64,000 nt of DNA from Eledone cirrhosa (Eukaryota), in the NCBI GenBank assembly GCA_964016885.1, contig OZ024743.1:342984001-343048000 (forward strand). Reading direction: 5' to 3'. A program made the position numbers and the translations under genes. Numbering within the stretch: position 1 is the stretch's first letter; each line of letters opens with the position of its first letter. Shown here piece after piece: positions 45,361 to 55,207 of the stretch. Under the pieces are notes generated by a model. The model searched no databases. It was given only the letters and a program-made list of their open reading frames with translations, and was not told the DNA's origin.

Positions 45361-45741
45361 ACTGGGGTATGTTAGTAACTGCCTCAATACAAATCTTGAG
45401 AAGCTAGGCTTCACAGGAACAGAAAGAACACAACTAGTTAGGAAATTACAAGTACAATCCATTAATGGAGCAGTAAAAATATGTAAAATATTCCAAAAAT
45501 GTTGCATCTAATGACTGCATATACACATGTACAGATGCAAAGCATATACACATGCACACATACAACTCAAAACATCAACATCCACACATACAATAACATC
45601 CATATCTACACATGCATGCATACATACATATCTACCTAGTTGATGTTGTGTAAATTCCAATGAGAGAGTCTTGTGTCTATGTTAGAAACCTACTCTCTCT
45701 CTCTATTGGTAAAACTTTGTGAAATTATAAAACCGGAAGAA
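45361..45741 (+). mobile_element. R4-like RLE element family E, short 3' fragment in (TACA)n
   Basis: LGYV..NLEKLGF..LVRKLQVQSINGAVKICKIF; 3' UTR shared with 46391-47325; TACA on both flanks. Confidence 0.75.
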
Positions 45742-45751
45742 CATACATACA

Positions 45752-46297
45752 TGGTGGCTGCCAACTCGTTTTCGAGTACGGCCACTACTTTATATCCCTG
45801 TAGGAGAACCCCTACCGATGCGCTGAACGAGTGTGACTTTTTAGTCCAACCAGCGACTTGAAAACTCTGGTACAAACACTACACCTGTGACAATTATTGA
45901 CACATAGTGCTGGGCCCATGGTACCATGTGACGACAAGTGCAGAGATATCTCCAGTTATAAAGCAATGTCTGTGTCGTGAAGCTTTTATAGTGAGCAAAG
46001 GCACTGCACAAAGCCAGTCCCACTCTCTTAACCAAGAAGATATTTACCAAAAAGAAGAACAAGTCAACATCATTGGATACCATCAGAGTTGCAGGTACTA
46101 TATCAGGGTTTTCCTCCTCCTAGAATTCTGCCTTGACAAAGGCTAAGGGGTCATCTCTCCCGGTGATTTTGGATGGCCATTGACTCTTAAGAGCTCCTTT
46201 GCCCTTTGACAGGTTTTGTTTTGCCAGTTTAGTCGCCAACCATGAGACAGGTTGTACTGGGTTACATGTTACCAGTAGCACCAACTAGTGACCTGAC
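45752..46297 (-). mobile_element. Non-autonomous RTE derivative, family C copy 1 (5' fragment of another copy at 45272-45348)
   Basis: 3' ~190 bp nearly identical to the RTE end at 56861-57040; RTE-like 5' UTR motif ggaaaac.ctgat; TACA flanks. Confidence 0.8.
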
Positions 46298-46390
46298 ATA
46301 ATACATACATACATACATACATACATACATACATACATACATACATACATACATACATACATACATACATACATACATACATACATACAT

Positions 46391-47325
46391 AGCTCCCGAT
46401 TTGAAGGATATGCTTTTGCAATCCAAGAACGGGAAATCAACACGAAATACCTGATTCACAAAAGAGATAAGAATGCAGACAAAAAAACTAGATACGACAA
46501 GTGCAAACTCTGCAGAATTAACATCGAAGATGTCACCCATGTCATAAGCAGCTGTCCAAAGATGTCATCACGGTACTATCTACATATGAGGCATGTTGTA
46601 GTATCCAAAACACTGTACAATGCAATTCGTAGATAGCCCCGACAATAAACACATTAAAAGCTAGAGCAATGTGGAAGACATACATATATATAATATGAAA
46701 GAGTACTGGTGGAATGTTCCAGTAAAAACTGCAATAAAATGAAATCATGACAGACCAAATATTATGATATGGGACAGCGAAAACGAAGGCATACACAGTA
46801 CTGGAAGTTAGCTGCCCAGCAGATGCCAATATAATATTAAAGATCAGCGAAAAGGAGAATATCTCTGCAGAACTAATGAGAAATCTACAGATACTCCGCC
46901 CTGCTATACCTTCAGATTTATACTTGTGATAATTGGGGCACTGGGATGTTAGTAACAGCCTCAATACAAATCTTGAGAAGCTAGGCTTCACAGGAACAGA
47001 AACAACACAACTAGTTAGGAAAGTACAAGTACAATCCATTAATGGAACAGTAAAAATATGTAAAACATTCCAAAAGTTCTGTATTTAATAACTGCATATA
47101 CACACATACAGATACAAAGTATATGCACATGCACACATGTAACTCAAAACATACACATCCACACATACATTAACATCCATACCTGCACACATATGCATGC
47201 ATGCAGACATGCATACATAATCTACCTAGTTGATGTTGTGTAAATTCCAATGAGAGAGACTTGTAACTATGTTAGAAACCGACTTTCTCTCTCTATTGGT
47301 AAAAAATTATAAAAATTGTAAAACT
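46391..47325 (+). mobile_element. R4-like RLE element family E, 3' ~930 bp, decayed
   Basis: AIQERE, CKLCRINIEDVTHVISSC, EYWWNVPVKTA, HDRPNIMIWD. Confidence 0.8.
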
Positions 47326-47633
47326 TGTGTGTGTGTGTGTGTGTGTGTGTGTGTGTGTGTGTGTGTGTGTGTGTGTGTGTGTGTGTGTGTGTGTGTGTGA
47401 ACGTAACAATTTGTTGGGTCTCAATGATACAAACCTTTACATTACACACCTATGTATATAAGATTTCAATACAATAACTTCAAAGCCTTATTTTACTTGC
47501 TCCAATCCCTGTATGTCTTTGTGGCTTTGTGTTTGACTTGTGCACTTATTTGTGTAAATTTAATTCAAATTGGAAGTGTATAGAAACCAACTCAACAAAA
47601 TATTTGAATACTTTATTCTCATTCAATTGTTTA

Positions 47634-48320
47634 TACATACACACATATATATATATATATATATATATATATATATATATATATATATATATATATACAT
47701 ATATATATATATATATACATATATATATATATACATATATATATATATATATGTGTGTGTGTGTGTGTGTGTGTGTGTGTGTGTGTGTATGTGTATACGT
47801 ATGTATATATATGTATATATATGTATATATGTATATATACATATGTGTATATATGTATATATATACATATGTATATATATGTATATATACATATGTGTAT
47901 ATACATATGTGTATATATGTATATATACATATGTGTATATATGTATATATACATATGTGTGTATATATGTATATATATATATATATATATATATATACAT
48001 ATGTGTATATATGTATATATACATATGTGTGTATATATATATATATATATATACATATGTATATATACATATGCGTGTATATATGTATATATATATAAAT
48101 ATGTATGTATACATATGTATATATATATATATATATGTATGCATACATATGTATATATATATATATATGTATGCATATGTATATATATATATATATATAT
48201 GTGTATATATATATATATATATATATATATATATATATATATATATATATATATATATATATATATGTGTGTGTGTGTATATATATATGTATATATATAC
48301 ATATATATATATATATATAT
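47634..48320. repeat. Compound TA/GT/TATG microsatellite
   Basis: Low-complexity run; similar arrays at 26982-27170, 31670-31963, 51277-51840, 56052-56860, 60079-60685, 61060-63120. Confidence 0.95.
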
Positions 48321-52428: not shown

Positions 52429-52800
52429 GGTGGTTGCCAACTCGTACTCGAGTACGGCCACTACTTTATATCCATGTAGGAGAACCCCTACTGATGCGCT
52501 GAACGAGTGTGACTTTTTAGTCCAGCCAGCGACTTGAAAACTCTGGTACAAACACTACACTTGTGACAATTATTGACACATAGTGCTGGGCCCATGGTAC
52601 CATGTGACGACAAGTGCAGAGAGATCTCCAGATATAAAGCAATGCCTGTGCCGTGAAGCTTTTATAGTGAGTAAAGGCACTGCACAAAGACAGTCCCACT
52701 CTCTTAACCAAGATGATATTTACCAAAAAGAAGAACAAGTCAACATCATTGGATACCATCAGGGCTGCAGGTGTTATATCAGAGTTTTCCTTGTCCTAGA
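52429..52800 (-). mobile_element. Family C copy 3, 5'-truncated
   Basis: Near-identical to 53099-53470. Confidence 0.8.
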
Positions 52801-53098
52801 AATTAAGAGAAAGAGATAACATATATATATATACATACATACATACATATATATATACATACATACATACATATATATACATACATACGTATATATATAT
52901 ATATATATACATACATACATATATATATATACATACATACATATATATATACATACATACATACATATATATATTACATACATACATACATACATACATA
53001 CATACATACATACATACATACATACATACATACATACATACATACATACATACATATATATATATATACATACATACATATATATATACATACATACA

Positions 53099-53705
53099 TG
53101 GTGCCTGCCAACTCGTTTTCCAGTACGGCCACTACTTTATATCCATGTAGGAGAACCCCTACCGATGCGCTGAATGAGTGTGACTTTTTAGTCCAGCCAG
53201 TGACTTGAAAACTGGTACAAACACTACACTTGTGACAATTATTGACACATAGTGCTGGGCCCATGGTACCATGTGATGACAAGTGCAGAGAGATCTCCAG
53301 ATATAAAGCAATGCCTGTGCCGTGAAGCTTTTATAGTGAGGAAAGGCACTGCACAAAGACAGTACCACTCTCTTAACCAAGATGATATTTACCAAAAAGA
53401 AGAACAAGTCAACATCATTGGATACCATCAGAGCTGCAGGTGTTATATCAGAGTTTTCCTTGTCCTAGAATTCTGCCTTGACAAAGGCTAAGGGGTTATC
53501 TCTCCCGGTGATTTTGGATGGCCATTGACTCTTAAGAGCTCCTTTGCCCTTTGACAGGTTTTGTTTTTAGTCCTGCATGATGTCAAAAGTCACCCTCCTC
53601 ACCAAGAAACCTTGGTGGGGTTGCCAGTTTAGTCGCCAACGACCCGACCATGGGACAGGTTGTACTGGGATACATGTTACCAGTAGCACCAACTGGTGAC
53701 CTGAC
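53099..53705 (-). mobile_element. Family C copy 4, apparently full length (~605 bp)
   Basis: Long (TACA)n on both sides; structured 5' end; zinc-finger-coding 3' end. Confidence 0.85.
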
Positions 53706-53861
53706 ATACATACATACATACATACATACATACATATACATACATACATATATACATACATGCATATATACATACATACATACATACATACATACATACA
53801 TACATACATACATACATACATACATACATACATACATACATACATACATACATACATACAT

Positions 53862-54410
53862 AGTCAACGCGATCAGTCGCATATTTTGGTGTGGGAGATT
53901 ATTTATTAAATTTAAGATGAATACTATCTCCGACAGTAATGCCACAACTACAGTCAGGTTGAATAACTGGTTATTCTTCTAAATATCCCTTCTGAAGACA
54001 CCTTTTATTCGAATTCGTAGAGATATCCGACTAAATACATCATTCATTATACAAGGATTTGCTACAAACAGCATTTGCTACAAGGATTTGCTACAAACAC
54101 AACATCAACAACAAAATTAAGGAAGTATCGAAGACAAATAACAAGGAAGGTAATCAAACTTTATTCAGTTGTAGCTACAGAAGAAACCGAAATTATAAAT
54201 CCCATTTCTCTTGGAGTTGCCAACTTAATAATGATTTATTTAATTGTTATAAAATGGCAAAAAACAATCTCTCCATTGACTATATGAATAGAATGAAGCT
54301 ACAATGGGACGAAATGCACCCAGAGCTAAATTATTTCACAGCGAAACAATTACGCCAACAAGCGACGTTTGTTGAACGTAAAAATAAGATAAATATTATT
54401 AATTGTAAGT
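53862..54410 (+). mobile_element. 5' end of an R4-like element (5' UTR plus Myb-like N-terminus) starting at (TACA)n
   Basis: WSCQLNNDLFNCY..DYMNRMKLQWDEMHP..TAKQLRQQATFV parallels family A WTKELNRTVMQCY..GYRRRMHNIW..DEQTLAGQARVI. Confidence 0.7.
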
Positions 54411-54686
54411 CCCCACAACAAACATGTTATCAACAACACGTGCTACAGGTCGCCATGCTACTAGACTTGCTAGCAGCCAGGTCGAACAGCGCCTTGAAAC
54501 AACTATGCCTGTAAGAAACTTGATGACAAGTGCAGAGAGATCTCCTGTGCCGTGAAGCTTTTATAGTGAGCAAAGGCACTGCACAAAGCCAGTCCCACTC
54601 TCTTAACCAAGATGATATTTACCAAAAAGAAGAACAAGTCAACAACATTGGATACCATCATATATATATACATACATATATACATA

Positions 54687-55207
54687 CGGAAAACAAAATT
54701 AACAACAAACGAGGAAGAATATATTGAGACAGATGGCACTAAGGAATACTGGTGGAACCTGAAAATAAAAACTGCCACCAAATTAAAGCACAACCGGCCT
54801 GATAGTGTTGTTTGGGACCACACATTGAAAACGTGTTCTGTTGTGGAGATCAGCTGCCCACTTGATGTAAACGTTGTCAGAAAAATACAGGAGAAGGAGG
54901 ACATCTACGGACCATTGATGAGGAGTTTACAGATCCAGTATCCAAGATACACCTTTAGCTTCATACCCATCATTATTGGAGCTAAGGGTTATATACCAAC
55001 CCGCTTCAGTACGACTGAACTTGGATTTGCGGACAAAGAGCGCAGCTCCCTAATTGATAATCTATAAATGGCGACGATAGCTGGCACCTTCAAAATTTGC
55101 AAAACATTCTTGCGATTCAAGGGATGACAATTTCTTTTCTTTTACAACCTTGCCACCAGGAAGGTGGTCGGTCAAAAAAATATACTCGAAATTAAGAGAA
55201 AGAGATA
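54687..55207 (+). mobile_element. R4-like family D, 3' fragment (family C fragment upstream at 54522-54660)
   Basis: Near-identical to 51866-52390. Confidence 0.85.

Follow-up and report, generated by a model that had tools for sequence, protein, structure and literature searches.

Two R4/Dong-like retrotransposon families with a likely preference for (TACA)n microsatellites in Eledone cirrhosa

Dong of Bombyx mori, DongAg, DongBg and the ostracod Dong have in common one open reading frame (ORF), a Myb/SANT-like domain at the N terminus, a reverse transcriptase (RT), a restriction-like endonuclease (RLE) and insertion into microsatellites (PMC7998251, PMC3812793; here and below, papers are cited for the passages of them that were available). 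We analyzed a stretch of 64,000 nucleotides from Eledone cirrhosa (contig OZ024743.1, positions 342,984,001 to 343,048,000), called here the window, which is AT-rich animal DNA with many microsatellites and interspersed repeats. It holds dead, mostly 5′-truncated copies of two single-ORF R4/Dong-like families (family 1 and family 2), which sit in (TACA)n one way and which, judging from the sequence, fairly probably inserted by sequence-specific target-primed reverse transcription.

It is useful to compare these families, together with three relatives from outside the window (L001, L002 and L003), with the described systems. Dong targets (TAA)n (PMC3812793), whereas the TACA lineage is flanked by TACA, forms a clade of its own and shows only 31-36% identity with the Dong-like group over RT-RLE. 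The nearest group outside the lineage includes Bombyx mori protein P0287, which may be Dong itself, and the TAA-flanked families A and B of the window. Rex6 of fish has (TA)n as its target; in contrast, TACA and not TA borders L001-L003 and family 1, and the 3′ flanks of family 2 are mixed TA/TACA. Rex6, of the R4 clade, resembles the lineage in being an R4-family element with a restriction-like endonuclease (PMC7599744). The likely target itself is shared with Waldo (WaldoAg1, WaldoAg2 and WaldoFs1), which uses ACAY microsatellites including ACAT, equal to TACA (PMC3812793). However, Waldo is of the apurinic/apyrimidinic endonuclease (APE) type, in the R1 clade according to a cited title, and the TACA lineage has a C-terminal RLE; because the endonuclease types differ, a common target would be convergent. 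Togen, specific for (TG)n, and the microsatellite-specific HERO families are likewise RLE elements aimed at microsatellites (PMC4640811), but their repeat unit is another one and they are NeSL/HERO-related; the passage of that paper does not name the HERO targets, so that a HERO family of TACA type is possible. Further microsatellite targets are AC for Mino, TC for Kibi and TTC for Koshi (PMC3812793). A sequence-only reading of this DNA had named no TACA-specific family, and the literature searched, from which Repbase and Dfam were left out, likewise yielded in the passages available no RLE family with a TACA, ACAT, CATA, ATAC or ATGT target; those of PMC13580325 and PMC3124438 hold nothing on a TACA target. 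A microsatellite-specific R4/Dong-like lineage is a known kind of system, and a TACA target for RLE elements was not found described in these sources.

All copies lie on the + strand. Translation and tblastn with full-length relatives gave five 3′ fragments and one 5′ end, with the common polarity and the differing 5′ truncation points that the sequence-only reading had reported; it had overlooked a 3′ tip of about 20 bp. The copies and the arrays between them are as follows (UTR, untranslated region; SINE, short interspersed element; element X is a repeat of the opposite strand, discussed below).

45362..45741, + strand: family 1, 5′-truncated copy; RLE ORF end and 3′ UTR, (TACA)3 upstream and (CATA)3 downstream
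46302..46391, no strand: (TACA)n array between the element X 5′ end and the family 1 5′ junction
46392..47324, + strand: family 1, 5′-truncated, frameshifted copy; CCHC zinc knuckle and RLE, start in (TACA)22
51033..51276, + strand: family 2, short 3′ copy; 5′ side meets a SINE-like repeat via a common ATTATT, 3′ flank mixed TA/TACA
51277..51841, no strand: compound TA/TACA array between two family 2 copies, with pure (TACA)23 at its right end
51842..52393, + strand: family 2, 3′ copy; open RLE frame (HNRPD..EISCP..K..EKEDIY), preceded by (TACA)23, 3′ flank mixed TA/TACA
52337..52353, + strand: 3′ UTR hairpin; 6-bp stem and 5-nt loop after CTT, compensatory changes in L001-L003, decayed in family 1
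52801..52819, + strand: family 2, extreme 3′ tip of about 20 bp; meets element X in a short stretch common to both, then a mixed TA/TACA array
53707..53862, no strand: (TACA)n array between the element X 5′ end and the RLE 5′ end
53863..54520, + strand: RLE element, 5′ end, probably of family 1; preceded by (TACA)23, cut short by an element X piece
54200..54403, + strand: N-terminal three-helix domain from a structure model, SANT/Myb-like by weak fold matches
54688..55204, + strand: family 2, 3′ copy; flanked left and right by mixed TA/TACA

Copies of family 1 are 84% identical to each other and those of family 2 92-97%. Between the families, identity is 36-69% in four short RLE segments, and the DNA can be aligned only over 78 bp. 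Truncation points vary from copy to copy, and all copies keep one orientation relative to the repeat. The window holds fragments only; in translation, family 1 shows CxxC..H..C and family 2 shows RPD..E..K. The RLE motifs EISCP and EKEDIY of the earlier reading hold for family 2 but not for family 1, which has EVSCP and EKENIS instead. The isolated 5′ end (53863-54520) probably belongs to family 1, because its best matches sit in a protein cluster that is also among the best of family 1 (P0328, 59% over 71 aa). For the same reason its assignment to family 2 was rejected; read assembly of the sequencing runs gave no listed joint connecting it to family 2, and none of five candidates proved to be a longer relative of the N-terminal piece.

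The flanks make TACA a likely target. Four of the copies had been described as starting directly in pure (TACA)n (45361, 46391, 51840 and 53862), and these starts do abut 3, 22, 23 and 23 units, respectively. The window contains 34 (TACA)3+ runs, 33 of them within 45001-57000 and none within 1-45000, while its + strand has no (TGTA)3+ run. Two or more TACA units lie within 24 nt at five of seven 5′ junctions and at five of six 3′ junctions (10/13); as background, 0.57% of 24-mers qualify in 1-45000, 4.3% across the window as a whole and 15.6% within the cluster. TAA was seen at none of these 13 junctions, nor at any of the five junctions available outside the window. At three sites (45350, 46302 and 53707) the TACA run separates an element X 5′ end from the point where an RLE copy begins at its 5′ junction. 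Since it lies there between two 5′ ends, where neither element has a tail, such a run is best taken for target.

How far does this association extend beyond one cluster? A profile of the RLE region fitted 109 stretches of metagenome contigs, of which three were confirmed as L001, L002 and L003, with 51-53% protein identity. All three terminate in (CATA)n, of 114, 73 and 57 bp, reaching the contig end, and L001 and L002, both of the relatives that keep a 5′ end, start in (TACA)n, which in L002 is accompanied by a short TA stretch. Each of the two has one intact ORF, of 1133 aa in L001 and 1161 aa in L002, with RVT_1 and with a putative Myb-like part, CCHC and RLE. The pair derives from one assembly, its DNA agreeing in patches at no more than about 65%; L003 comes from another, and sequence of element X or of its RTE relative is absent from the three contigs. 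Family 1, L001 and L003 have ..GAA|CATA at the 3′ junction.

The first 45 nt or so of L001 (112-156) and L002 (100-145) contain a common motif, AGGACGTGTGGATTA.CGCTCT, to which the window 5′ end (53863-53910) has a looser match, CAGTCGCA..GTGTGG..ATTA; it is possibly an internal promoter or a 5′ RNA signal. The long 3′ UTR of L002 (4095-4383) includes a degenerate internal tandem repeat of about 70 bp with 72% identity.

Other searches were less productive. Viral contigs gave 63 pattern matches, none confirmed, and a search with the hairpin-plus-CATA pattern returned 0 matches. A single candidate from prokaryote genome contigs (L004, 1/23; 37% over 42 aa) was taken as chance and not used. At least half of the words of family 2 are present in nine of 20 listed sequencing runs under six organism labels. 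Read recruitment from four runs gave 0, 5071, 177 and 9441 records, X13 being the run with 0; it is neutral on flanks, because repeats were skipped and flanks are therefore not shown.

The protein neighborhood of the families was evaluated with the RT-RLE part of a full-length relative, the best 120 of 548 matches being listed. Among these, identities drop from 41-63% to 31-36% near rank 85, where Dong-like proteins start, one of them from Bombyx mori. A FastTree phylogeny was built on 94 rows and 808 columns, with the short family 1 piece omitted and with P0208 and P0211 dropped as near-copies of L001 and L002. It includes no named R4, Rex6, R2, NeSL or HERO element, its root is one long unnamed branch and its basal fork is unresolved. 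L001, L002, L003, family 2 and Argonauta fall in an 11-row clade (SH-like 99), nested in clades of 24 rows (100) and 69 rows (100), and a separate 22-row group (SH-like 99) holds the Bombyx mori protein together with A and B, the families flanked by TAA. Among named relatives, family 2 comes closest to a protein of Argonauta hians (61% over 154 aa); the clusters looked up gave a host name for this species only, and its copies include GAB1605922.1 and GAB1597890.1 with their cluster mates. The family 1 pieces match best a sister group inside the same 24-row clade. The earlier suggestion that TACA is a possible target gains from this result, since the three diverged relatives are all TACA-flanked and form with family 2 a clade that excludes A and B. 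The latter make up a Dong-like tandem cluster (2608-14700, - strand) with (TAA)n at six of the seven junction regions printed. One Dong-like TAA-flanked copy there has an open ORF of 1131 aa (2693-6088, - strand).

Pfam gave no APE match in the full-length relatives, which have the C-terminal RLE, and no match on the RLE part; a toxin-domain match on an RLE piece (E 0.083, below the cut-off) and the single match of a PDB sequence search with the RLE profile (E 0.049) were put down to chance. No zinc finger was seen upstream of RT in L001 or L002. A Myb/SANT-like N-terminus is reported for R4/Dong (PMC7998251). The N-terminal piece of the window is modeled as three helices (mean predicted local distance difference test, pLDDT, 82.7), in agreement with the Myb-like domain first proposed for it, but the fold matches are weak. 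The top VIA rows are an ISWI module (Z 6.9, root-mean-square deviation 2.6, 72 aligned), Sap1 (Z 6.5, 3.1, 72) and GT-1 (Z 6.1, 3.4, 70), with Zeste, DMAP1 and Myb domains in lower rows, and Foldseek found nothing for the model at E<=0.001.

At the RNA level, all eight aligned sequences have a hairpin, with a 6-bp stem and a 5-nt loop, within the final 75 nt of the 3′ UTR. In it 91.7% of 48 cells are paired, and five of six pairs have changed on both sides. The score was reached in none of 500 shuffles, slid controls giving 21-46%; the structure was picked from the same alignment, and kinship of the copies inflates these counts. R4 and Dong have been described with an HDV-like (hepatitis delta virus-like) ribozyme at the 5′ end (PMC3774820). 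Our own descriptor of it, run without a positive control, found 0 matches in nine of nine 5′ regions, TAA-type families included. Rfam gave 145 matches on 44500-60000, all repeat-driven (microRNA/small nucleolar RNA) and below the gathering score.

By analogy with R2 and Dong, the protein would bind its own RNA at the 3′ hairpin, while the N-terminal Myb-like domain and the RLE would recognise the TACA/TGTA duplex; the (TATG)n strand would then be nicked and cDNA synthesis primed at the 3′ end of the element (..GAA|CATA). Early stops of cDNA synthesis would leave 5′ truncations, and repeated insertions into one array would build the cluster. In this host, opposite-strand RTE-type elements would leave (ATGT/AT)n tails as further, often mixed, target arrays, and family 2 may accept such mixed TA/TACA sequence.

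These opposite-strand elements, an RTE element and its non-autonomous derivative, element X, had escaped the first reading. Their features on the - strand are as follows (LINE, long interspersed element).

45752..46298, - strand: element X, second copy with both ends
53099..53706, - strand: element X, longest copy (about 610 bp); (ATGT/AT)n after the 3′ end, (TGTA)n before the 5′ end
45271-45349, 50481-50929, 52429-52801 and 54521-54640, - strand: other pieces of element X
55283..56051: second RTE-like 3′ end
56861..59132, - strand: decayed RTE-like LINE with RT and C-terminal C2H2 fingers

By its RT sequence, the LINE at 56861-59132 would belong to the RTE clade. Directly after it, on its own strand, lies an 800-bp AT/ATGT array (56053-56860). 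C2H2 zinc fingers stand at the ORF C-terminus of both RTE-like 3′ ends (55470-56051 and 56894-57496, - strand), which differ from each other. Element X, of about 610 bp, occurs six times in the window, whole or in part and always on the - strand, and its last 180 bp match the 3′ end of the RTE element (56861) at 93-94%. Mobilisation of element X by the RLE families was rejected, its 3′ end being that of RTE and on the other strand. Both element X and RTE end in ATGT/AT repeats, which read TACA/TA on the + strand, and RTE elements are known to generate microsatellites, their short 3′ UTR ending in one (PMC2887409); part of the TACA arrays of the window are therefore probably tails of these two elements. 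Element X resembles other non-autonomous partners of RTE LINEs in such a 3′ UTR (PMC2887409) but differs from them by carrying a microsatellite on its 5′ side too. A TACA/TGTA microsatellite is present on that side in all three copies keeping a 5′ end, which suggests that element X also prefers the TACA/TGTA array and may be a second, independent system with this preference. Cephalopods typically carry R4-Dong and RTE-BovB elements (PMC10294476, PMC8967140), and RTE-BovB has expanded in them (PMC10294476); with the Argonauta hians match of family 2, this makes an octopod host probable.

Several observations weigh against TACA-specific insertion of both families. The window junctions lie clustered and are not independent, every window copy being within 10 kb. 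Three junctions fall short of two TACA units within 24 nt: two 5′ ones, formed with a SINE and with element X, and the 3′ end of the family 1 copy at 46392-47324, whose final 9 nt or so are gone and are followed by (TG)37. The four 3′ flanks of family 2 are all mixed TA/TACA, with 4-6 TA units in the first 24 nt. Outside the window there are only three loci from two assemblies, probably collapsed repeat contigs, and the loose-end consensus reads ..GAGAAACAT in X3 (116 contigs, agreement 0.76) as against ..GAGAAAAAA in X7 (43 contigs, 0.73). Flanks are known for only four of the 69 rows of the large clade, and shuffling the labels of the tree gave no significant result (64 of 500). The Myb-like fold matches, to SANT/SLIDE, Sap1, trihelix and Myb domains (Z 5-6.9, all <8), are in the range of common helical arrangements.

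One alternative touches family 2 alone and can stand beside most of the reading given above. It supposes that family 1 and the outside relatives target TACA and that family 2 has shifted towards (TA)n, as in Rex6, or towards the borders of TA and TACA, its true 3′ end being ..GAGATAACA followed by (TA)n. The TA units in all four of its 3′ flanks favor such a drift, as do the short TA stretches at the L002 junctions, but we regard it as unlikely: copy 51842 begins after pure (TACA)23, TACA units occur in all four 3′ flanks, copies of family 2 (and of family 1) are absent from all 53 (TA)6+ runs in 1-45000, and the arrays nearby are of mixed kind in any case, for example in the RTE tail (56053-56860).

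A second explanation transfers the aim from the protein to RNA-DNA pairing: a (CAUA)n tail arising by read-through or slippage would anneal to any nick in the (TATG)n strand, and the endonuclease would be only loosely specific. Transcripts could carry CATA repeats, because every intact 3′ end has CATA-type repeats behind it, and element X, which depends on another LINE, has the same two-sided microsatellite association. Set against this, the target and a near-identical junction register (the ..GAA|CATA of family 1, L001 and L003) have been kept at about 50% protein identity, and we give pairing a rather small chance of being right. Passive co-location, in which the arrays are RTE/X tails and the RLE pieces were gathered or duplicated in a repeat-rich patch with no sequence preference, could draw on the right polarity of the ATGT/AT arrays ending RTE and element X, on the known microsatellite-generating activity of RTE elements (PMC2887409) and on the confinement of all window copies to 10 kb, but it is very improbable, being already largely refuted by L001-L003 (all three TACA-flanked, on contigs without RTE or X) and at odds with the differing truncation points and the uniform orientation of the RLE copies to the repeat.

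If target-primed insertion into TACA is accepted for the two families, a broader proposal can be put forward, which is possible although we hold it with some doubt. They would represent an unrecognised sister lineage of Dong that is widespread, with 24 and perhaps as many as 69 or more sequence clusters from octopods and further hosts. It would be (TACA)n-specific through the Myb-like domain and the RLE, would have converged on the Waldo target and in this host would parasitise arrays left as RTE tails on the opposite strand. Target choice of RLE retrotransposons is understood mainly for R2, which is specific for ribosomal DNA. A four-base target kept across about 50% protein divergence, beside TAA-specific relatives in one genome, offers a natural pair for mapping specificity to the Myb-like domain, the RLE or the RNA tail, and, if the proposal is true, comparing domains would be a direct test of what determines the choice of microsatellite. 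Such a lineage would also be a case of convergence on one microsatellite by two unrelated types of endonuclease, and it may help to account for clustered tetranucleotide arrays in cephalopod-type genomes. The two intact ORFs and the conserved 3′ RNA hairpin are ready reagents, of interest for site-specific retrotransposon mining and gene insertion (PMC13586686).

Three other repeats accompany the cluster. At its left edge lies an element resembling miniature inverted-repeat transposable elements (44759-45268), with inverted repeats at 44759-44875 and 45121-45237 (93%) and related pieces at 25344-25652. A decayed RT-bearing LINE fragment (48340-50300, + strand, Pfam RVT_1), whose motifs we take to be CR1/L2-like, is directly followed by a TA/TACA array at 50311-50481. 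Finally, a SINE-like repeat of about 190 bp occurs on both strands, at 459-649 and about 13 other places including 50923-51038, and presumably resembles the OK-type SINEs of octopus.

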